Assembly: GCA_030532065.1 (NCBI GenBank)
Contig: JAUNLW010000001.1
Span: 240,132-304,131 of the forward strand
DNA length: 64,000 bases
Direction of reading: 5' to 3'
Source: Eubacteriales bacterium
GTDB lineage: Bacteria; Bacillota; Clostridia; Saccharofermentanales; DTU023
The notes beneath the pieces are model-generated. The model did not search any database. It saw nothing but the letters and a program-made list of their open reading frames with translations, and was not told where the DNA came from. Numbering within the stretch: position 1 is the first letter of the stretch; every line of letters starts with the position of its first letter. This document shows positions 43,013 through 54,475 of the stretch, one piece after another. The position numbers and the translations under genes are program-made.

Positions 43013-44332
43013 ATGGCTGTGGCTACCCAAAAAGTAAAAGTGCTCATAATAGGAGCTGGACCCAGTGGCTTGGCCGCTGCTATCGCGGCAGGTGAAGCCG
43101 GCCTCGCTCCGCAGGATTTGGTCGTGCTTGAAGCCCAGAATATTCCTGGCCGCAAGATCCTGGCTAGCGGCAATGGTCGTTGTAATTTAGGCAATTTAAG
43201 CCCACTTCCGGAAAACTATCACAGTAGCCGGCCGGAGCTTGCCGAACGTTTGCTTGAGAAACTAGCCAGCGCTTATTCGTTAGATTTTTGGCGCCGCGCC
43301 GGTATAGCAATCAAGGCAGATGAAGCCGGCCGACTCTATCCTCAATCCGAAGAGGCGGCTGCCGTGCAACGTATGCTACTTAGGCGTGTAAGTCATTTTG
43401 GCTTTACAGTCGAAATGGCCAAAGCCCTAAAGGCTATCGCGAGATCAGGCAAAGGCTATCTCGTAACCTGTAAAGATGACAGCAAGTGGGAAGCCGAGGC
43501 TGTAATACTGGCTCTCGGTGGACCAGGAGGTGCTGACTTGGGCGCAAACGCTAAGGCACAGGCTCTTTTTGATGGGCTTGGCCTGGACACAGTAGACCAG
43601 CGTCCGGCACTGACGCAGATATTACTGAAAGAAAATGCTTTTCTAAAGAGAGCACAAGGTAGTCGCTTCAAGGGCTCCGCGCAAATTGCTAGCAGCCGGA
43701 GCAAGGTTAGAGGCGAGTTCCTCTTTAGCCAACGTGCGCTGTCGGGTATTGCTGCGCTTGACTTGTCCAATCTCTTAGCAAATACGCAAGGCAGCTTTAA
43801 GGATAAAGCTGAAAACAGTGATTTTATCTTTTCTAAACCCCTTAGGCTGGAATTGGATTTTTTGACAGAATATACAGAGGCAGACTTACGCAAGTTCCTT
43901 GAGGCGAAGCAAGACAGCTTTCGCCAAGAGATAACTAAGAACTGGATCGAAGAGCAAAGCTGCCTATCGTATCTGCTTGACTCTCTGATCAACGCTAAAC
44001 AGGTTAAAGCCTATTTGCTGGCTGAGGGTAAAGGCAGGCTGTTAGATACTAAAGAAGTTTTTTCTAAAGCTCAATTGGCTAAGCTAGCCCATGCGCTTAA
44101 ACATTTTCCACTCACTGCCATCGGCCTTCGGTCCTATAAGTTCGCGCAGACAGCCAATGGTGGACTCAGTCTGTCAGAGCTTGACGAAAACCTACAAATA
44201 AAAAAATACCCCGGCCTCTTCGCAGTCGGGGAATGCCTGGATCTAACGGGAAACTGTGGTGGCTACAATCTTTACTTTGCCTTTGCGTCCGGTTATCTGG
44301 CCGGACAGACTGCTAAAGCTTATTTGAGTTGA
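43013..44332 (+). CDS. HI0933/BaiN-like FAD-dependent oxidoreductase
   Basis: It has the dinucleotide fold VLIIGAGPSGLAAA and the C-terminal block GECLDLTGNCGGYNLYFAFASGYLAG. Confidence 0.8.
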   Translation: MAVATQKVKVLIIGAGPSGLAAAIAAGEAGLAPQDLVVLEAQNIPGRKILASGNGRCNLGNLSPLPENYHSSRPELAERLLEKLASAYSLDFWRRAGIAIKADEAGRLYPQSEEAAAVQRMLLRRVSHFGFTVEMAKALKAIARSGKGYLVTCKDDSKWEAEAVILALGGPGGADLGANAKAQALFDGLGLDTVDQRPALTQILLKENAFLKRAQGSRFKGSAQIASSRSKVRGEFLFSQRALSGIAALDLSNLLANTQGSFKDKAENSDFIFSKPLRLELDFLTEYTEADLRKFLEAKQDSFRQEITKNWIEEQSCLSYLLDSLINAKQVKAYLLAEGKGRLLDTKEVFSKAQLAKLAHALKHFPLTAIGLRSYKFAQTANGGLSLSELDENLQIKKYPGLFAVGECLDLTGNCGGYNLYFAFASGYLAGQTAKAYLS

Positions 44333-46299
44333 CCTAACAGATCTCCGCATTTGACATAGAGCTCATAGAGATTCTCCAGACGCTGATGCTGGCGGGCAAA
44401 TTCCTCATAAATTTCGCTACCTTCTACCTGACCGAATTGGGTGCTCAGGTCAGAGGTGGAGTCTTCCAGAGCAGCAATCTCAACTTCTATATCTCTCACC
44501 GCTTCCGCCAGCTGGGCGCGCAATTGGCGCTCAGTACGGCGTTGATTAGAGCGAGGTGGAAGTTTAGCCAGTTGTGGTAAAAGAGCCAGTTCTTCTTTAG
44601 TAAAAAGACTTGCCCCTGACTCTTCTTGCTTAATGTTTTGCTTGCTACTTGTTTCTTTATCAACTTCTGACGTACCCGAGAGAGCTTGTTTAACTGCTCT
44701 ACGATAGGAATTATAACGTGGAAAAGGCCTAACTTCACGACCAACAAAACCATAGATCTGCTCGCCTATACGCTCGATAAAATAACGATCGTGGCTGACA
44801 GCTACGATTGTCCCCTGATAGCGTTCCAGGGCACTTTCCAGGATTTCAGAAGAAGAGATGTCCAAGTGGTTGGTAGGCTCATCCAGGAAAATCAAGTCCG
44901 GTTTCTGCAGCAGGATCTGGGCTAAAGCCAGACGGGATTTTTCACCACCAGACAGGCTGGCTACCGGCTTTTCCAGGTCTAATCCATAGAAGGAATAACC
45001 GGCCAGGTATTCGCGACCCTGGTTAGAGGTAAGTGTTTCCTCATAGGAGAGCAGACTCTCGATAACCGTAAGGGTCGGGTCTGGGAAACGCTGAGTCTGG
45101 TCCAGACTAGCATAGCGCAGGTTAGGAGAGAGGCTGATCTCTCCTTGTAAATAAGGGTTGCGCGCGGAGAGGGCCTTGAGCAAATTAGTCTTTCCACATC
45201 CGTTCGGCCCACAAAAAAGGATTTTATCGCCAGAATATATATCCAGATCTAATGGGTGAAAGAGTTCGTCTTCCGCGTCAGGAAATTGGATTGTCAGAGC
45301 GCGCGCTGAGATGAGCAATTTTTTGCTTTCCATACCGGCGGCTTCTTCCAGATAACGCAACTTAAATTTGGGGGAGACGCGAACGTTCTGTTCTTTAAGT
45401 TCCCGCAGACTATCGTTGAGCTTGGCTAACTTTTTTTGTCTACTGTGATAAGAAGCGATCTTGCGGTGAGAATATAAAGTTTGCACAACTTCTTCTTCGT
45501 GTTCGATTGCTTTCTCCAGTTTGCTTTGCTCGCGCTCGCGGCGCAGCTGTTCCTTAGCCTGTAATTCCTTGAAGGTAGAATAATTACCGCGGTAAAGCGT
45601 TAATTTACCGGTGTTCAACTCGCCGGTAAGATTACAAACCTGATCGAGAAAATGCCGGTCATGAGAGACCACAATCAAGGTGGATTTTAAAGAGGCCAGC
45701 TTTTCTTCCAGCCATTCAGAAGCTTCCAGATCCAGATGGTTGGTGGGCTCGTCCAGTAAGATCAAATCCGGTTCTTGTATCAATATAGTGGCTAAGGCCA
45801 ATCTCATACGTTCACCGCCGGATAAACTGGCTTTCTTCTGACCAATCTTAGCCGGATCCAGCCCCAGGCTGGCCGCGGCTTGCGCTAGACGATATGGATA
45901 GTCCCAGGCTCCTTTAGCTTCATATTTAGCCTGTAAATGAGCGTATTCATTTAATAACCGCTCGTCATTCGGATGCTCAGCCATGGCACGTTCCAGGGCC
46001 TGGCGCTTTTCATTTAAACGCTGGAATTCAGGATGATCCAGTGCGGTAAGTTGACCTTCATCAGCACGAAATTCCTGCTCCAGATAGGCAGGGATAACAC
46101 CGGCAGCCAAATGTATACGCGCTTCTTCGTTGTCTGCCTCTTCTTTTCCGCTGATCAGGCGCAGTAAAGTAGTCTTGCCTGAACCATTATGTCCGATCAG
46201 GCCAAGTTTGTCCCCGCGGTCCAAAGTAAAGCTCACATCTTTGAGCACGTTTTTGGAAAAATAGGATTTATTTAAATTTTCGACTGAGAGAATACTCAT
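44320..46299 (-). CDS. ABC-F family ATPase (tandem ABC domains, no TMD) with a C-terminal coiled coil
   Basis: Walker A motifs are GHNGSGKTT and GPNGCGKTN. Signature motifs are LSGGERMR and LSGGEKSR. It has a charged inter-domain linker, and its 3' end overlaps the convergent gene by 13 nt. Confidence 0.9.
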   Translation of the reverse strand: MSILSVENLNKSYFSKNVLKDVSFTLDRGDKLGLIGHNGSGKTTLLRLISGKEEADNEEARIHLAAGVIPAYLEQEFRADEGQLTALDHPEFQRLNEKRQALERAMAEHPNDERLLNEYAHLQAKYEAKGAWDYPYRLAQAAASLGLDPAKIGQKKASLSGGERMRLALATILIQEPDLILLDEPTNHLDLEASEWLEEKLASLKSTLIVVSHDRHFLDQVCNLTGELNTGKLTLYRGNYSTFKELQAKEQLRREREQSKLEKAIEHEEEVVQTLYSHRKIASYHSRQKKLAKLNDSLRELKEQNVRVSPKFKLRYLEEAAGMESKKLLISARALTIQFPDAEDELFHPLDLDIYSGDKILFCGPNGCGKTNLLKALSARNPYLQGEISLSPNLRYASLDQTQRFPDPTLTVIESLLSYEETLTSNQGREYLAGYSFYGLDLEKPVASLSGGEKSRLALAQILLQKPDLIFLDEPTNHLDISSSEILESALERYQGTIVAVSHDRYFIERIGEQIYGFVGREVRPFPRYNSYRRAVKQALSGTSEVDKETSSKQNIKQEESGASLFTKEELALLPQLAKLPPRSNQRRTERQLRAQLAEAVRDIEVEIAALEDSTSDLSTQFGQVEGSEIYEEFARQHQRLENLYELYVKCGDLLGQLK

Positions 46300-46410
46300 A
46301 GACTAATCATAGGGGATAAGAGACAGCTTGCAAAGGACTTTTTGTTTGCTATAAACTGGAATGAAATAAGCAGAAAGGATCTAATTCTCTTCGAGAATTG
46401 TCAGATAATT

Positions 46411-47141: not shown

Positions 47142-47756
47142 CTATATTTGTTCTGGTACGATATAGCCCTTGGAAACCGCGAAGATCGCCAGTTGGGCAA
47201 TACTGGAATAGCCGGTCTTGGCCAGGATACGGTTGATATTATTGCGCACGGTATTTTCAGAGAGAAAGAGTGCTTCGGAAATCTCCTTACGGCTTAAGCC
47301 TTTGCAGACCAGGCGGAGAATATCCATCTCGCGCTCAGTCAGGTCCAGTTCGACCGCGCTGCTGCTCTCTTCTTCAGGAAAGGTATGGTAGTCATGCATT
47401 GTGCTCTGGATGCTTTTCAGCAACTGCTCTCTACCTACATTTTTGTAAACGAAGCTATCAGCCCCAGCTTCTTTGGCAGCGGTGACAAAAGACATATCAG
47501 GCATACCGGTCATAAGAATAACTTTGATTTGCGGGAAGCGTTCTTTGATCCGCTTAGCTTCCACGATGCCGGATTGACCCTCATCGTTGCAGATATCCAT
47601 GAGTACCAGATCGGGTTTATAGAATTCACAAAGGTCCACTACCTCGCCTGCGTAGGTAGATTTAGCCACGATCTCAATCTCATCGGACAAACTAAGTGAG
47701 TCTGCCAGTGAGTCTAGAAGGATCTGCTGGTCTTCTATCAGAATTAATCGTATCAT
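47142..47756 (-). CDS. NarL/LuxR-family response regulator (REC + HTH_LuxR)
   Basis: The REC domain has DLVLMDI and KVILMTG. The HTH is LSRKEISEALFLSENTVRNNINRILAK. Confidence 0.92.
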   Translation of the reverse strand: MIRLILIEDQQILLDSLADSLSLSDEIEIVAKSTYAGEVVDLCEFYKPDLVLMDICNDEGQSGIVEAKRIKERFPQIKVILMTGMPDMSFVTAAKEAGADSFVYKNVGREQLLKSIQSTMHDYHTFPEEESSSAVELDLTEREMDILRLVCKGLSRKEISEALFLSENTVRNNINRILAKTGYSSIAQLAIFAVSKGYIVPEQI

Positions 47757-47931
47757 TTATTACTCGTCCTTCCTCTTGCTGTCACTTACAGCTTAGTAGA
47801 CACTGATTTAATCCTTAATGAATCTATATTATAACACAGGCCATTTAGGTATCCGAAAAACAGGAATGTGAGCCTTCTGTAACTTCCTCAAGAGGAGATA
47901 GCTTATAATAAGAAAAATCGGAGGAAGCAAT

Positions 47932-50667
47932 TTGCGGAGTCAGAAATTAAGACATCTAAGAATGACCAGTGCAGAGCAAACCACTGCTGGCCGCCTTAAG
48001 AGACTGCTGGTTGCTTGTTTGCTGTGCCTGTCGTTGCTTAGCATATTTGACGGTGTGCCTACTACTGTGGCAGCCTCTACCGGCATGGGTATAGAGGAGC
48101 CAGACCTGGCTCTGGAAGCTCCCATCTATTATTTTGATTATCCCGGTTCCCTCTTTTCCAATGCAGTTTTGGGAAATTTTCCTTTTTCCTATATTGAGCG
48201 CTTGAAGAGCGAGACTTCGGTGCACCAGGAAGAACTGGCGGACAGTCTCATGCTCTTACCGGAAAATCGCGCTCATACGCTGCGGGCTAATGCGGCTAAT
48301 CAGAGCGAGGTAGCCTTTGAGCCTATATATGAGGCCAGCCTGGTAATTGCCTACGATAGTGAACGGATCAGGCATGATCTTAGAAGTTGGAAAGATCTTC
48401 TGATCGTTGCCAAAGCTGGTGAGTTACCAGAATTAGGGGTGCTGCTGGAACCGGAGTATGTCCTGGCCAGCGCGGCGCTGTATCTGGATCAGTCGGAAGA
48501 CGCGGAATTGATAAGGACGCTGGCAGAATTAAACGACCAGGGCAAACTGAAGCTTTTTAGAGGCTCAGATGCAAATTCAGGCTGGCCAGTTTCTTTGATC
48601 TCTGGTGGACTGGAGACCAGAGAATTACCGGCAGTATTATTACTATGGGATTATCAAGCGGCTCAGATCAACCGTAAGCTGGGCAGCAACTCCTATACTT
48701 TCCACTTACCTTATGAAGGCAGCTTAAGTCTGTCTTTCGGCCTTTACGCCAATGGAAGAAAGGCAAAGAATACACTGGAAAGCCGTTTACAGGAAGAAAC
48801 AAGGTTAAGTCTGGCAGAAAACTTCATCGCTTTTGGCTATCGCATGGCAGACGGAAGCTCACCTCGTACACTTAAAGCATTTTCCAATCCGCTTCTGGGT
48901 GATGAAGTTTCTACTTATGGCTATCCGGAGCCGGACGAGTATCGTGCCCCGGCCATGACCTACCGGGATTATGGAGACTTGAACCAGATCTTCCTTAGCT
49001 CTACGGCAAAACTCAGGCGTGATGTGCTGGGGAAGAGTGTTATCTTACCGGCTACACCTGAAGAAGAGCACGTGCTTCTAGTGTTACTGATCCCAATTTT
49101 TCTGATCTGGGCAGCTACCATCTTCTTCCGCATCGACGATGTGGCGATCAGGCGCTCTATTACCTTGCTTTCGCTCTGGTTCTCCTTGGCTATTATCCTC
49201 TTCTTTGTGCAGACCATGTACGCTAACAGCGCCCGGAACGATATCATCTATTACATTCGCTTCCTGCCTTTTGTTGGCATGATCGAATCCTGGTTCTACA
49301 CAGGTTTTAGTCTGGCTCGCAGCCAGGGACTGATCAAGGAAAGACACCGTCGTCTGCCATTGCTTTGCAGCATGATCTTTTACGCTCTGGGTGTTGCCTT
49401 TGTGCTCAATGACCTGCACGGCTATGCCTTTACCCTGAGCCCCTTCATGCGTATCCAAAAACTGGGTCCCCTGGGCTATCTACTGCTTTTGGCTATCTTA
49501 GGACTCTGGCTGGCAGGATTTTTCTTGCTGCTCAAATGTCAGGCCAAAATCTATACCTCCACCTGGGTCTTCCCGTTGGCAGCTTTTGTTGCGCTGTGCG
49601 CGCTAAACATCTATCTGTTTATCAGTGATGGCAGTTTGCGCTCCACCAGCTTTGATCTGCTCAATCTGGTTGGTATAGCAGTGATCTTGGAACTTAGTCT
49701 GCAAACACGCTTGATCCCAGCCAATTCGGGTTATATCAAGCTTTTCCGCTACAGTAATGTTGGCCTGCGCCTGATCAACGAAGACCGCTCAGAAGTTTAT
49801 CCACCAGAAAGAGACAACATTCCCTCGGCCTCTGCGGCCTTGATCAACGAAGCCATAGAGCAGGATCTAGCCTCCAGGCCGGAGAACTCAGGCGTGGGCG
49901 TGGCTGTACCCAGTGCGGAGCAAGAGGGCCTTATTTACCATACTTCCAAAATCAATGGTGGCTATCTGATTTGGGAGGAAGATATATCAGATGTTTTAAA
50001 ACTCAAGCATGAGCTGACCTATCTTATGGAACGCCTGGAGCAACAGGGCAGAATTTTGGCTCGTAGACGTAATATTCGCGGTCAATACCTGTCTATGAAA
50101 ATTCGCCGAGAAATGATGCAACGTCTTGAATCCAGTCTCTCAACGCAGCTGCAAGAGATAAGAAAGAGCCTGCGCGAGATAGAAGCTTCTGAAGACAAGA
50201 ACTTTGTCCGTCAGGAACTGGGACGCGTCAAGATCATGGTCTCTCAGTGTAAGCGCAAAAGTAATCTCCTGGTTAGAGCGGAGGCTGAGATCCAGGCAGA
50301 AGAAGTCTCGCTTATTTTTAACGAAGCTTTGCAGGATGCCGGCACGGCGGACATAAGCGGCTTAGTGCTGGTACAAGGCTCAGTGCCCTTAGCAACCGAT
50401 ATTCTGCTGGCTCTCTATGACTATGTCATGTACCTGCTAGCTAAAGCAGTGGGTTTAAACTCCACCAGCCTTTTCCTGAACTTGCGCTGGGACCAGGAAA
50501 AACTGACTTTACAGATTATCTTCAGCTCGGCTGAGCCCAGCCCCGAAAGTTTTTTCCAGCCGGGATCAGATCTTCTGCCGGAACTCCGGCGCCTTAAACT
50601 TGACTTACACATAGAGGTCGATGGCAATGACTGCAATATCCGCATTGTGAGAGAGGAGGGAAAATAG
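47932..50667 (+). CDS. Large membrane sensor-like protein: solute-binding-protein-like ectodomain, ~7 TM helices, coiled coil, and a degenerate (His-less) HisKA_3/HATPase-like module
   Basis: TTG 47932 lies 6 nt after GGAGGA. There is a signal/TM segment, then a ~330-aa domain with a PBP-like pattern (SLVIAYDSERIRHDLRSWKDLL). The TM block spans residues ~385-620. The C-terminal part aligns by eye to the downstream kinase, but IRREMMQRL replaces IHDVMGQRL and there are no N/G boxes. Confidence 0.6.
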   Translation: MRSQKLRHLRMTSAEQTTAGRLKRLLVACLLCLSLLSIFDGVPTTVAASTGMGIEEPDLALEAPIYYFDYPGSLFSNAVLGNFPFSYIERLKSETSVHQEELADSLMLLPENRAHTLRANAANQSEVAFEPIYEASLVIAYDSERIRHDLRSWKDLLIVAKAGELPELGVLLEPEYVLASAALYLDQSEDAELIRTLAELNDQGKLKLFRGSDANSGWPVSLISGGLETRELPAVLLLWDYQAAQINRKLGSNSYTFHLPYEGSLSLSFGLYANGRKAKNTLESRLQEETRLSLAENFIAFGYRMADGSSPRTLKAFSNPLLGDEVSTYGYPEPDEYRAPAMTYRDYGDLNQIFLSSTAKLRRDVLGKSVILPATPEEEHVLLVLLIPIFLIWAATIFFRIDDVAIRRSITLLSLWFSLAIILFFVQTMYANSARNDIIYYIRFLPFVGMIESWFYTGFSLARSQGLIKERHRRLPLLCSMIFYALGVAFVLNDLHGYAFTLSPFMRIQKLGPLGYLLLLAILGLWLAGFFLLLKCQAKIYTSTWVFPLAAFVALCALNIYLFISDGSLRSTSFDLLNLVGIAVILELSLQTRLIPANSGYIKLFRYSNVGLRLINEDRSEVYPPERDNIPSASAALINEAIEQDLASRPENSGVGVAVPSAEQEGLIYHTSKINGGYLIWEEDISDVLKLKHELTYLMERLEQQGRILARRRNIRGQYLSMKIRREMMQRLESSLSTQLQEIRKSLREIEASEDKNFVRQELGRVKIMVSQCKRKSNLLVRAEAEIQAEEVSLIFNEALQDAGTADISGLVLVQGSVPLATDILLALYDYVMYLLAKAVGLNSTSLFLNLRWDQEKLTLQIIFSSAEPSPESFFQPGSDLLPELRRLKLDLHIEVDGNDCNIRIVREEGK

Positions 50668-52236
50668 ATGTTGTACTTTTATGAGATCCCCCAAACCTTG
50701 CGCATGGCTTTGCAGATCTTTCTCCTGGCCGGTATCGCCAGTCAAATGGTACTAATGCTTATGTACTCCTTCTTCCGCAGGGGTCGTCAATATATTCTCA
50801 ATTTCTTCTTAGAGTTGGGAATCCTGTATTTCTTTATCATGCTTAACCTGTCATTGGGCTTTATCCAGTTAACTGAGCCGAAAAACCTGATCGTCTACCC
50901 TTATGCGGAATGGCGCAATCTAGGTATGCTAGCGCCCATTTTGGGTATGCCGGTGTTGATGAATCAACATCGACAAAGCGACCTGATTGCCATTCTCTGC
51001 CTGATTTTTACCTTGCCCTTTATGGAGGCTCTGGCTGGGGTCTGGTATGTCAATCTCTGTGCGTTTTTTACGGCCATTCTGCTGATTCGTTCCGCCTATG
51101 AGCTCAAGCAGAATCTCTCACATCTCAAACAAAACATTACTCGCTTTTCCATGAAACAGGCTTTTGACACCTTCCCGGAAGGCCTGGCCATAGGCCGCCA
51201 ACACGGAAGTCTTATTTTTACCAACGCCAAAATGCGTCAGCTGATGGCAGACAAAGGACTGGCGCAGGATAAGAGAACTTCTGGCCTGCGCGTAGCCTTT
51301 CGCCGCATGTTGAAAGAAGAAGAACTCGCGGCAAAACAGGCTGATGCCAGTTCGCTTACGCTTACACGCATCTCTTTGGAACAAGAGATAAGGCAGAAGA
51401 ATGAGCAGGAAGCGAAGAATAACCGCAGCTCCAGGCGTCGTGCGCATGACAGTGACGCTACGGAACCGGTACCCAACCTGCGCAGCTTTGAGAGCGGCGG
51501 GCACATATACCGTTACCAGGAAAGCAGCTTACAAGTTGGACATAAGACTTACTGGGAGGTCTTGATTAGCGATATCAGTGAGGAAAGTCACCTCATCCAG
51601 GAAATCCAGGAAAAAAACCAGGATCTGGCACAAAACAATCAACAGCTGGGCATGATGCTGCAAAATATTGAAGAGATCGAACTGGAAAAAGAAACTCGCC
51701 GTATGCGTAATCGTATCCATGATGTTATGGGACAGCGCTTATCCATCCTGCATTCCAGTCTGCAACAAATGGATCGGAGGGAAGAAGTACCTCTGACCGA
51801 TCTTTTAGACCTCCTAGAAGATATGATGGATGACCTGCAGGAAGGTGAGAAATTTGATAGTGAGCAGATATTCCACAATGTTCAAAATACGGCCGATATT
51901 GTAGGTACTAAATTAGTCAAACAGGGTGACATACCGTCTAACGAAGAAATAGCTACTGTTTTTCTGCAAATTTTGAGAGAAGCCGTAACTAACGCGATAC
52001 GCCACGGTCAGGCAGACGAAGTCTTAGCTAAATTCTATGAAGATGAGGAAAACTATTATATGGATATCAGCAACAGTGGCCGCCTGCCAGATCAGATCGT
52101 ACAGGAAGGCGAAGGTATCAGCGGTATGCGCCATAAACTAGCCGGCCTGGCCGGTCACCTGGAGATCGAGACCCGTGATACCTTTACCATCAAGGTGCGT
52201 GTGCCACATTTCGATAACTTGCCGGTAAAACCCTAA
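50668..52236 (+). CDS. Sensor histidine kinase, HisKA_3 (NarX/LiaS/DegS) type, with a 5-TM N-terminal domain
   Basis: The H-box is RNRIHDVMGQRLS (His351, nt 51718-20), the N-box is REAVTNAIRHG, and the G-box region is EGEGISGMRHKL. Its ATG abuts the upstream stop (TAGATG), and its SD GAGGAGGG lies inside the upstream gene. Confidence 0.85.
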   Translation: MLYFYEIPQTLRMALQIFLLAGIASQMVLMLMYSFFRRGRQYILNFFLELGILYFFIMLNLSLGFIQLTEPKNLIVYPYAEWRNLGMLAPILGMPVLMNQHRQSDLIAILCLIFTLPFMEALAGVWYVNLCAFFTAILLIRSAYELKQNLSHLKQNITRFSMKQAFDTFPEGLAIGRQHGSLIFTNAKMRQLMADKGLAQDKRTSGLRVAFRRMLKEEELAAKQADASSLTLTRISLEQEIRQKNEQEAKNNRSSRRRAHDSDATEPVPNLRSFESGGHIYRYQESSLQVGHKTYWEVLISDISEESHLIQEIQEKNQDLAQNNQQLGMMLQNIEEIELEKETRRMRNRIHDVMGQRLSILHSSLQQMDRREEVPLTDLLDLLEDMMDDLQEGEKFDSEQIFHNVQNTADIVGTKLVKQGDIPSNEEIATVFLQILREAVTNAIRHGQADEVLAKFYEDEENYYMDISNSGRLPDQIVQEGEGISGMRHKLAGLAGHLEIETRDTFTIKVRVPHFDNLPVKP

Positions 52237-52346
52237 AATGTCGTAAAATCAGGACTTTTGACGAACTTCTACATTATTTACCTAGCTCTTACTTGCGAGA
52301 ATTAAGAACGTCTTAGAGCGACACTAAATTCTCAAGGAGGAGCTTT

Positions 52347-54416
52347 ATGTTTAGAAGTCTTGATCAGCAGAACCTAAAAAATATTCCCATTCTGCTAAAA
52401 AGCCTAAGCCTGATTATACTGCTTATGCTTTTATGTTACCTGCCCCAAGAAGTAGAGGCCTTGACCATCCGTCACGAACCAGTACGAAATGAAAAATTTT
52501 TTGTCCGTGTCAATATGCCTGATTACGTTGAAGAGAAAGGACCGGGTTCTTACTCTGAACGAGTTGCCAGTTTCTATCTCAACTCCCACTATCCGACCCA
52601 ATACCCGAGTTTAACCTGCTTTTGCATCGAACCTTTCATTGCTATAGACGCAGGTGAGGTGACCTACAACAGTCAGGATCTTGCCTCATACCTTCAGGAA
52701 TATTACGGTTATTCACCGGACGCTGCTCAGAGAAAGGCACGCGACCTGGCAGAGGTAAGTTACTTTGCTCTGGGTGCCATACCTGCCTCGCAGCGTACTT
52801 TAGAAGATCAATTCACCTGTCAGTTACTTTTGTGGGAAGAGTTGGGTTATGAAGTTCATTTGGCCGACCCCTACTGGTATAAGCTTGGTAAAGAAAAAAT
52901 GCGTCAGCGTCGCGGGGAATACTACCAAAGACACAGCCTAGAGGGTGAGACCATTGAGTTGGAACCAGGCGGCCAACTTAGCCTCCAGGACAGCGGTTGG
53001 GCAAATCTACTGCCGGCAGCTGGATTTAGTCCCGGAAATCCAAAGGCACTTGACGAAGAAGGTCAACTCAGCCTTACCTGGAACGGAGCGGATCAGGTGG
53101 TGCTGGAAGCCTCGCGTGATTTTCAAACCGATACCAATGTGAGCATAGTAGCTGGATCATCTAACCACAATGTAGGGGCCTATGTTGCCGCCAGCAGCCA
53201 ATCCGTAGTAGAAGTTTGCAGCAGGGCTCCGCTCAAGCAACTAAACTTCAGCGTCGTATCCAAAGAAGCTCCCAGCTCCAGCTTTAAATTACAAAAGATG
53301 GCAGAGCAGATTGTAAGCTGGGAAGAGGTTGACAAGATACGGGTAAATGAAAAAGAAGAGTCAGTTTACCGTCCCTTAAGAGAAGTCAGACCGTTGGCCG
53401 GTGTCAACTTTAGTCTCACACTAAAGGAAGAATTATGGTTTAAGGGTGAGCACTATGAGCCAGATGATTTAGTGTATGAATTTACTACTGATGCGAATGG
53501 CGAGGCAATACTGGAAGAGATACCCTGCGGTAATTATCTGCTCACTGAAGAAAGCCAGGACCTTAACTATTTACCTTTGAATTCCATCAGCATTGAGATT
53601 GTTCCGGATGAAATATCCGTAGATGAAGCAGAACCATATATTGTCAACAATGAACGACGTGCCTTTGCTTTTAGCGCCATCAAGCAGCTGGAAGGAGCTA
53701 AGGATCTTAGCTACGACGAGGTGTCATCTGTCTTGCGGGAACTGAAGTTCGTGCTGCGTACCCAAGAAGACTTACCGGGTCTGGAAGAGAAATTACCTGC
53801 CGGTAGTTTGGTAGCCTGTTCGTCACTGGAGCCTTTGGAGCCATTGCTGCCACAGGCAGATCCGGCACAGGGCCAGAGCGAGTCAGAAGATGGAAACACC
53901 CTTGCTTCAAGTGATCAGCAGGAAGTGCTGAGTTTTGCTGATATGTTCCCGGCTAAAGATATCCTGAGAAAGATCAGTTTCGACTTACCTTGTTTAGCAA
54001 CGTTTAGTCTGGAGGAAGTAAATCCTGGCAACATCTACCAAAGACTGGAACCCATAGAATTAGACTTCAAAAACTTCTCAGAGCCTGAAGTTGACGCTTG
54101 GGGAGGTTATCGTTACACGCTGATGGCTCCTTTAGTAAATAAGCTGGTCCCACCGGAAGAAGTAGTGGAAGATCCCCAACCAGTTACACCGGCCCCCATA
54201 CCTGTAGAGGAGCCCGAAGCTACAGATCCACCAGTAGTTTATTTCCCCACTAATCTGGAGCAAACCATACTGCCAACGCAAAATGTAGAGGCGCCTGATT
54301 TTCTCACGCAGGTTAAGAATCTGCCGGCTACCGGTTCCGCTGAGTCCAATAAATTGGCTGCCATAGGTCTGGCTCTGGGAACTCTTATCCTTTCCGGCAT
54401 AAACAAAATTAATTAA
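52347..54416 (+). CDS. LPXTG-anchored surface protein with a thioester-domain-like N-terminal region and CnaB/SpaA-type fold domain(s)
   Basis: It has a signal peptide, a FCIE motif (Cys93, nt 52623-25) and a CQLLLW motif (Gln159, nt 52821-23). A prealbumin-like block reads GVNFSLTL...TTDANGEAILEEIPCGNYLLTEE. A Pro-rich stalk is followed by LPATG plus a TM helix plus a short tail. Confidence 0.7.
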   Translation: MFRSLDQQNLKNIPILLKSLSLIILLMLLCYLPQEVEALTIRHEPVRNEKFFVRVNMPDYVEEKGPGSYSERVASFYLNSHYPTQYPSLTCFCIEPFIAIDAGEVTYNSQDLASYLQEYYGYSPDAAQRKARDLAEVSYFALGAIPASQRTLEDQFTCQLLLWEELGYEVHLADPYWYKLGKEKMRQRRGEYYQRHSLEGETIELEPGGQLSLQDSGWANLLPAAGFSPGNPKALDEEGQLSLTWNGADQVVLEASRDFQTDTNVSIVAGSSNHNVGAYVAASSQSVVEVCSRAPLKQLNFSVVSKEAPSSSFKLQKMAEQIVSWEEVDKIRVNEKEESVYRPLREVRPLAGVNFSLTLKEELWFKGEHYEPDDLVYEFTTDANGEAILEEIPCGNYLLTEESQDLNYLPLNSISIEIVPDEISVDEAEPYIVNNERRAFAFSAIKQLEGAKDLSYDEVSSVLRELKFVLRTQEDLPGLEEKLPAGSLVACSSLEPLEPLLPQADPAQGQSESEDGNTLASSDQQEVLSFADMFPAKDILRKISFDLPCLATFSLEEVNPGNIYQRLEPIELDFKNFSEPEVDAWGGYRYTLMAPLVNKLVPPEEVVEDPQPVTPAPIPVEEPEATDPPVVYFPTNLEQTILPTQNVEAPDFLTQVKNLPATGSAESNKLAAIGLALGTLILSGINKIN

Positions 54417-54441: not shown

Positions 54442-54475
54442 TACCCCTGTTCAGCAGAGCAGGGGTATCTTTGTT
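54442..54475 (+). terminator. Terminator after the surface-protein gene
   Basis: TACCCCTG...CAGGGGTA is followed by TCTTTGTT. Confidence 0.6.

Follow-up and report, generated by a model that had tools for sequence, protein, structure and literature searches.

How does a membrane-bound histidine kinase that has no sensor domain of its own receive its signal? The question is raised by a 64,000-nucleotide (nt) stretch of a Eubacteriales bacterium genome (GenBank assembly GCA_030532065.1, contig JAUNLW010000001.1, forward-strand positions 240,132 to 304,131; hereafter the window), in which the gene for such a kinase directly follows a gene for a 911-amino-acid (aa) protein, itself preceded by a divergent gene for a NarL-type response regulator (RR). 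An initial annotation, made from the sequence alone, described the 911-aa protein as a duplicated kinase that had lost catalysis and gained an extracellular ligand-binding domain, and hence as an accessory sensor. We find that its most likely role is that of the signal-sensing half in a widespread three-protein system that is undescribed in the open-access literature. Coordinates are collected in Table 1.

A conserved three-gene unit in four phyla

Sequence searches with the 911-aa protein gave few leads by name. Pfam and NCBIfam scans found no family, phmmer against PDB sequences returned nothing useful, relatives carry no public name beyond 'hypothetical protein' or 'histidine kinase N-terminal 7TM domain-containing protein', and no description of the family was found within the open-access literature. 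A word-indexed search recovered eight homologues, all in metagenome-derived assemblies, and an exhaustive HMMER search recovered 1281 cluster representatives at E ≤ 1e-3 (565 at E ≤ 1e-10). Among 154 relatives analysed (picks from the HMMER search plus the word-indexed homologues), 115 have at least 740 aa, and hence room for the ectodomain, and 37 have 450-700 aa and lack it.

A scan of reference genomes from a 6-sequence alignment located 28 loci, 24 of which continue beyond the family gene. They belong to Clostridia, Christensenellales, Syntrophomonadaceae, Tissierellia, Anaerolineae, Dysgonomonadaceae, Muribaculaceae and Treponemataceae, spanning four phyla (Bacillota, Chloroflexota, Bacteroidota and Spirochaetota) and including the cultured Anoxynatronum buryatiense. 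The next gene encodes a kinase of the window type at 23 of these 24 loci (E 1e-18 to 1e-90 against the kinase-family profile; two of the 23 kinases end at a contig boundary), and the two reading frames usually overlap or abut. A NarL-type regulator is also present in 20 of the 23 kinase-bearing loci; its gene lies beside the pair in all clades, in a position and on a strand that vary between clades, and is upstream and divergent in the window clade. Divergent kinases as a starting point give the same order: kinase P0028 lies behind a 902-aa family member, and a 487-aa member that lacks the ectodomain (E=3e-31) stands before kinase P0032. In the window, the stop codon of the 911-aa gene abuts the ATG of the kinase gene, whose ribosome-binding site sits within the 911-aa coding sequence, and this arrangement suggests that the two genes are translationally coupled.

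The conserved unit is pseudo-kinase, kinase and regulator, with a periplasmic-binding-protein (PBP) domain in most members. The accessory-sensor reading of the initial annotation gains strong comparative support from the 23/24 adjacency, the function itself being inferred. Its account of a duplicated kinase needs amending, the pair being an ancient, widespread family across the four phyla and not a recent duplication within this locus.

A predicted kinase fold without catalytic residues

The partner kinase has about five transmembrane (TM) helices joined by short loops, and neither an ectodomain nor a sensor domain of its own. Its C-terminus matches UhpB (best, 1.2e-9), NarQ and NarX among NCBIfam models. 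RNRIHD, REAxTNAIRH and EGxGxxGMR are invariant in the kinase family, and the H-, N- and G-boxes are kept in every complete partner kinase among the loci.

The last ~190 residues of the 911-aa protein form the confident part of the full-length AlphaFold2 (AF2) model (predicted local distance difference test score, pLDDT, 70-87). The model places helices at residues 686-709, 719-752 and 756-782, the latter two forming a hairpin like that of the DHp domain (for dimerization and histidine phosphotransfer), followed by an alpha/beta domain in the place of the catalytic and ATP-binding (CA) domain; the cytoplasmic coiled coil anticipated by the initial annotation lies ahead of the hairpin, within residues 686-782. 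Foldseek matched the C-terminal model at probability 1.0 to WalK, DesK, HK853, EL346, AgrC, AdeS and DivL (DivL structure 4q20, E=1.7e-5), and the best 50 matches are all of sensor-kinase type (histidine kinases, phytochromes and the pseudokinase DivL). BLASTP of the C-terminus against the neighbouring kinase gave E=0.01. A superfamily profile built from 115 sequences over residues 600-908 aligned colinearly with the kinase family in hhalign (E=1e-5, probability 82%, 212-239 columns; E=2.4e-7 in global mode), and the reversed-template control gave E=0.024 over 35 columns. Single domains are too weak alone (CA, E 0.013; DHp, 0.0016; a small PAS-like domain, 0.11). BLASTP, the deep profile and the fold therefore agree with the DHp/CA likeness that had been seen by eye. 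The homology to the partner kinase is real but very faint, and the fold match carries most of the weight.

The catalytic residues are a different matter. In 11 of 12 hhalign settings, His351 of the kinase falls opposite E733 (nt 50128-50130), a register in which the hairpin loops of pseudo-kinase and kinase coincide. BLASTP instead pairs H351 with R725 (nt 50104-50106), which needs a 12-residue gap right after the hairpin. The initial annotation, which set R725 at the phospho-acceptor site, was right that no His stands there and wrong in its register, E733 being the equivalent residue. Both residues are invariant in the close clade. Across 155 relatives, Arg, Lys, Gln or Glu occupies position 725. 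At position 733 the whole close clade (100%) has Glu, and the other relatives have Glu (65%) or Asp (16%), so that an acidic residue stands there in about 83% of the family. A conserved phospho-acceptor His elsewhere in the DHp helices, which would have spoken against the annotation, was not found in the 155 relatives (top column, 12% His). The kinase N-box residues E438 and N442 face Y834 and K838 (hhalign), the G-box EGEGIxGMR has no counterpart in the pseudo-kinase by alignment and column statistics, so that both boxes are missing as had been claimed, and a short segment of poor conservation stands in for the ATP-lid region. Kinase D302 lies opposite D684 in the same alignments.

Judged by its missing motifs, the module appears to be a kinase-shaped domain from which every catalytic feature has been removed, and incapable of catalysis. 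The contrary reading, that it is still an active kinase using a non-canonical acceptor residue or ATP site, can appeal to the retained DHp+CA fold and to a His at position 723 in some members of the close clade (4 of 8 close homologues; 21% of 19 members). It is the least credible of the explanations considered here, given that no His column is conserved, that the whole family lacks the N-box Glu/Asn and the G-box and that a short, poorly conserved segment takes the place of the ATP lid. The predicted C-terminus should accordingly be called kinase-like in fold, not a kinase, because the fold is kept while the tests by His, N-box, G-box and Pfam all fail.

The extracellular domain and the membrane block

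The outer part of the protein is confidently predicted to have a PBP fold. A model of residues 54-378, built by AF2 from a 45-sequence alignment, is two-lobed, with a mean pLDDT of 92.2 and a predicted TM-score (pTM) of 0.91. Foldseek returned 815 PDB matches at E ≤ 1e-3, all periplasmic solute-binding proteins (SBPs), in alignments that span the whole ectodomain (~350 columns to proteins of ~325 residues). The best match is 5t1p, a Campylobacter jejuni SBP whose ligand is unknown (E=8.5e-12), and the other top matches are PotD, PotF, AttC, MotA, AgtB, TbpA and FbpA (E 1e-7 to 1e-11), whose ligand classes are polyamines (PotD/PotF), opines (AttC/MotA/AgtB), thiamin (TbpA) and ferric ion. These cluster-D SBPs resemble the ectodomain over the full length of the fold (TM-score about 0.5-0.62). 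At the sequence level, the superfamily profile matched 5t1p at E=2.3e-14 and PotD weakly; distant relatives reach Pfam PF13343 SBP_bac_6 at 2.6e-5, just under threshold (24.3 bits for P0046, the cut-off being 24.6), and the window protein has no Pfam match. Residues with which PotD contacts polyamine after its PxEG motif appear by eye not to be kept.

Seven helices follow between residues 376 and 594, by the full-length AF2 model and the hydropathy scan together. Homologous relatives match Pfam PF16927 HisKA_7TM over this block (E 3.8e-13 to 1.6e-5); the window protein has no such match itself, and its link to PF16927 runs through these relatives. Since the PBP domain is outside and seven TM helices follow, the C-terminus should be cytoplasmic, and the positive charges of the inner loops, read from the sequence, fit this orientation. 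The initial annotation had thus drawn the outline well, with its N-terminal signal or TM segment (a hydrophobic stretch at residues 25-43), a PBP-like ectodomain of ~330 aa, for which the leading PDB matches are cluster-D SBPs, and about seven TM helices.

Residues W393, R400, N493, H496, E587 and P596 of the membrane block are conserved family-wide. N493 and H496, in an NDLHG motif (N493-G497, nt 49408-49422), stand at the predicted outer end of TM4, R400 (nt 49129-49131) at the TM1-TM2 turn and E587 (nt 49690-49692) within TM7; these four residues might touch the PBP domain or help to relay the signal. A likeness of the 7TM profile to the class C orphan G-protein-coupled receptor (GPCR) GPR156 over residues 430-505 (nt ~49219-49446; E 0.38-1.5) is not significant, was not used and is most likely due to chance. 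Between membrane and kinase-like module, AF2 predicts a small alpha/beta domain (strands 612-616, 657-660, 667-674 and 677-684; helix 632-648) that may be PAS-like; G676, G677 and D684 are conserved in 86-95% of the 155 relatives.

The ectodomain also bears on a transport-based reading, in which SBP and membrane block would be an uptake device, or derived from one, and report flux to the kinase. UhpB is controlled by the transporter-like sensor UhpC, UhpB is the best NCBIfam match of the partner kinase, and the ectodomain belongs to an SBP fold class of ABC transporters. However, through its relatives the membrane block is tied to the kinase-associated HisKA_7TM and to no transporter family, and, unlike the cluster-D SBPs, which serve ABC importers, the ectodomain is not in an ABC importer locus: neither an importer permease nor a transport ATPase was found in the conserved block of the window and related loci. 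The ABC protein at 44320-46299, which has two ABC ATPase domains and an L001 counterpart with ABC_tran_Xtn, is of ABC-F type and has no membrane partner. We regard a transceptor as very improbable.

The upstream neighbours of distant loci (an oxidoreductase, a LysR regulator, a group II intron reverse transcriptase, a hydrolase, a methylase, a radical SAM enzyme and QueT) form no recurring metabolic theme, hence give no clue to the ligand. In locus L031 (9-2275; a Eubacteriales metagenome-assembled genome), and in that locus only, genes for arginine deiminase and ornithine carbamoyltransferase stand beside the RR gene, which is of interest since the ectodomain resembles polyamine binders. The intron reverse transcriptase/maturase open reading frame (ORF) lies just upstream of the module in A. 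buryatiense (L008 4628-6046).

A proposed mechanism and its alternatives

We propose, with a probability of about 0.68, that the 911-aa protein acts as the ligand-sensing, non-catalytic subunit in a signalling system of three proteins. The PBP domain would capture a small molecule outside the cell, its fold class being that of polyamine, opine, thiamin and metal binders, and domain closure would be relayed through the fused 7TM block to the PAS-like domain and the dead DHp/CA module. Having E733 in place of the His, and neither N-box nor G-box, this module could not autophosphorylate; it would instead control the sensor-less kinase encoded by the next, translationally coupled gene, within a membrane complex held by TM-TM contact, DHp-DHp pairing or both. 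The kinase would then phosphorylate the NarL-type regulator, which would probably govern adjacent cell-surface genes. What we infer in this scheme is the physical interaction, whether control is by activation or by inhibition, the ligand and the regulon. A more specific version, which we consider doubtful, makes the pair an obligate split sensor kinase: two distantly related chains would form an asymmetric complex through their DHp helices, the sensing chain having a layout like that of class C GPCRs, in which a PBP/Venus-flytrap domain is joined to a 7TM bundle, and E733 acting as a phosphomimic. E733 might then imitate a permanently phosphorylated half-site and bias the kinase/phosphatase balance of the partner.

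Several observations weigh against the proposed sensing subunit. Pfam HisKA_3/HATPase_c and NCBIfam kinase models do not match the C-terminus at E ≤ 1, nor that of 10 distant relatives, and hhalign found no match between an 8-sequence profile and the kinase family (probability 0.3%); because these tests fail, the claim of kinase homology rests on the deep profile, which found the similarity that plain Pfam and NCBIfam searches missed, and on predicted-structure matches. In the full-length AF2 model (mean pLDDT 59.8), the membrane region and the ectodomain of that run are of low quality. Contact between pseudo-kinase and kinase is deduced from adjacency and likely coupling, and the AF2 models are monomers. 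The output genes are assigned purely by adjacency, and the operator motifs that they share are weak. Finally, the family has a conserved set of its own, K774 (99%), R775, E798 (95%) and Y829-D830 (84-99% overall in the 155 relatives), in which K774-R775 is nearly invariant and lies on DHp helix 2, and this conservation could reflect a different activity.

Two alternatives build on that last set. Through K774-R775, E798 and Y829-D830, the module might have acquired a new activity or bind a small molecule, and signal independently of the kinase. The set is conserved where kinase motifs are absent, and no Pfam family covers the C-terminal region. Yet near-obligate adjacency to one kinase family in four phyla argues for a joint function, and the residues belong to elements that serve as interfaces in kinases; docking therefore fits them as well as catalysis does. 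We consider such a gain of function improbable. In the other alternative, the pseudo-kinase would bind the RR, in its phosphorylated or unphosphorylated state, through its DHp-like surface and tune the pathway as a scaffold, sink or feedback sensor, reversing the flow of signal as in DivL. The DHp helix 2 region contacts regulators in canonical kinases, which would suit K774-R775, and DivL is among the fold matches; DivL is, moreover, documented as a repurposed kinase that senses a phosphorylated regulator (PMC4211667). An extracellular binding domain on a 7TM block, beside a sensor-less partner, nevertheless fits the sensing of an input better, and the gene appears translationally coupled to the kinase gene and not to that of the RR, which shifts in position and strand. 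Reversed signalling of this kind is unlikely, if somewhat less so than a new activity, and the ligand-sensing subunit is the reading that we carry forward.

Relation to known systems

The proposed division of labour has precedents among SBP co-sensors of kinases, as in LuxP-LuxQ, TorT-TorS, ChvE-VirA, HptA-HptS and XylFII-LytS, and in the membrane sensor pair UhpC-UhpB. The SBP co-sensor, or in UhpC-UhpB a dedicated membrane sensor, supplies ligand recognition to a kinase that is unable to sense the ligand alone. The SBPs are free or lipid-anchored and dock on the periplasmic domain of the kinase, whereas the SBP of the window is fused to 7TM and a dead core, and its partner kinase has no periplasmic domain.

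Among pseudokinases, RocA of Streptococcus pyogenes (compared here by description) is encoded away from covRS, whereas the pseudo-kinase gene of the window abuts the kinase gene. The membrane part of RocA consists of six TM helices, with no binding domain outside the cell, in contrast to the seven helices and PBP domain of the window protein, and RocA keeps a dispensable His at the expected site, which the window family has lost throughout. The two are alike in a polytopic N-terminus followed by DHp-like and degenerate CA-like parts, and RocA, which itself lacks kinase function, interacts with CovS and acts through this bona fide kinase (PMC7028121). In the same species, FasB and FasC heterodimerise, FasC being a proposed pseudokinase, and FasB/FasC/FasA resembles the window unit in having two adjacent kinase-like genes and a regulator gene, with a proposed sensor/pseudokinase and a catalytic partner (PMC12675982). 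FasC, however, keeps its phospho-acceptor His with a dispensable CA domain; because the window protein has no such His, phosphotransfer would pass wholly through its partner kinase. The Fas system also has no PBP ectodomain.

RetS of Pseudomonas aeruginosa retains kinase motifs and receiver domains, belongs to the 7TMR-DISM family in its 7TM and ectodomain, and is not operon-linked to GacS. It is comparable in being a 7TM receptor with an extracellular sensor domain that modulates a separate kinase by direct contact at the DHp domain, RetS being reported to disrupt the GacS DHp dimer (PMC8498467). DivL of Caulobacter crescentus carries Tyr where the His would be and is reported to use its kinase-like core to sense a phosphorylated regulator (PMC4211667). 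It shares with the window protein a DHp+CA fold without phospho-acceptor His, and differs in having no PBP ectodomain. None of RocA, Fas, RetS and DivL unites a fused PBP ectodomain with loss of the His throughout the family and strict linkage in an operon.

Gene neighbourhood and candidate output genes

The 911-aa gene starts at a TTG with a Shine-Dalgarno sequence (GGAGG) 7 nt upstream; the NCBI version of the protein (P0001) has 901 aa and starts from an ATG at 47962. An 85%-identity orthologue (L035) is called at 911 aa, in line with the TTG length. The intergenic region shared with the RR gene contains a AATGTGAG(N6-7)GTAACT element and a TATAAT box that are common to the window (47757-47931), L035 (6826-7003) and L036 (4390-4557). 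The AATGTGAG..CTGTAACT element is kept although protein identity falls to 54%, and may be a promoter or autoregulatory site.

Genes for surface proteins recur downstream of the trio. The SpaA/LPXTG gene of the window is conserved downstream in L001, L002 and L035; DUF6935 proteins (about 160-216 aa) follow in L003-L006, and giant wall-anchored surface proteins (at least 1400 aa) in L003, L005, L008 and L009. These giant proteins are anchored by SLH or Cu_amine_oxidN1 and contain multiple domains of the Shr-like_HID, cadherin-like, GLUG and InlB-B-repeat types. That the RR controls adjacent surface-protein genes is a reasonable guess from their position. No 8-mers are common to the divergent promoter and the regions upstream of the flanking genes. 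In the subclade of L010, L015, L019 and L021, an ORF of ~125 aa and ORFs of ~450-500 aa without Pfam match lie downstream, the small ORF of L010 matching DUF5640.

On the other side of the RR gene, the 233-aa protein has a lipoprotein-like signal (ending LTTVAC) and a long coiled-coil, apolipoprotein-like region, and Pfam gave it no family above threshold. Counterparts of 211-246 aa lie beside the RR gene in L001, L002, L035 and L036, and the protein may belong to the signalling module in the clade of the window. Upstream of this gene and of the SpaA gene (46334-46399 and 52251-52333) are AGGACTTTT and GAGAATT/AATTCTC inverted repeats, arranged as AATTCTC-N3-GAGAATT at 46383-46399 and GAGAATT-N23-AATTCTC at 52297-52333. 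AGGACTTTT occurs 4 times in the window against ~0.5 expected for a 9-mer on both strands. The repeats are conserved in L035 before the small gene and partly before its SpaA gene, and are absent from more distant loci. The two flanking genes could have the AGGACTTTT/GAGAATT motifs as a common operator; because they are conserved only in the nearest orthologue, they were not used as evidence.

Table 1 Features of the three-gene unit and its surroundings (window coordinates unless a locus is named)
Feature	Position	Strand	Basis
Small secreted/lipoprotein-like coiled-coil protein, 233 aa	46342..47043	+	ORF; likely true start ATG 46414
NarL/LuxR-type response regulator, REC + GerE	47142..47756	- (divergent)	Pfam Response_reg 3e-17, GerE 1e-14; NCBIfam NarL-family
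Divergent promoter region, RR gene/911-aa gene	47757..47931	.	Conserved AATGTGAG..CTGTAACT element + TATAAT box
911-aa SBP-7TM-pseudo-histidine-kinase gene	47932..50667	+	ORF listing, TTG start, 8 close homologues
Signal peptide or N-terminal membrane anchor, residues ~22-48	47995..48075	+	Hydropathy peak 25-43, then TVAAS
Type II PBP domain, cluster-D-like, residues 54-378 (predicted)	48091..49065	+	AF2, Foldseek, family profile
Seven-helix transmembrane block, residues ~379-597	49066..49722	+	AF2 helices, hydropathy
Small cytoplasmic alpha/beta (PAS-like) domain, residues ~608-685, ends GGYLIWEEDIS (predicted)	49753..49986	+	AF2
Coiled coil + DHp-like helical hairpin, residues 686-782, no phospho-acceptor His	49987..50277	+	AF2, hhalign
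Degenerate CA (Bergerat-fold-like) domain, residues ~786-908, no N-box/G-box	50287..50655	+	AF2, Foldseek
Partner sensor kinase, 522 aa, intact HisKA_3-type H-box (H351), N-box, G-box	50668..52236	+	Family alignment, NCBIfam
LPXTG-anchored SpaA-fold surface protein, candidate output gene	52347..54416	+	Pfam SpaA 4.9e-6, LPXTG anchor
Strong terminator, 11-bp stem, after SpaA/LPXTG gene	54442-54467		
Downstream DUF6935/giant surface genes	L003 5212-10007; L004 7861-8349; L005 11518-16447; L006 11673-12164; L008 11730-16460; L009 11613-16304		

Implications

Known pseudokinase partners are a few single cases (RocA, DivL, FasC and RetS), whereas the pseudo-kinases described here form a large cross-phylum family in which, in most members, the dead chain carries the sole obvious ligand-binding domain of the system. 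The family is thus a natural system in which to study control between kinase-like chains. The proposed role would explain signal input for a class of sensor-less membrane kinases and would give a functional label to hundreds of clusters of 'hypothetical' or '7TM domain-containing' proteins. In its PBP-on-7TM layout, the family converges strikingly with class C receptors of eukaryotes. If the split-sensor reading is true, these proteins constitute a widespread, unrecognised three-component class, with hundreds of clusters in anaerobic Bacillota, Chloroflexota, Bacteroidota and Spirochaetota, that may control adjacent cell-surface or adhesin genes; the recurring surface-protein genes downstream suggest a role in the envelope or in adhesion in gut and anaerobic-digester bacteria.

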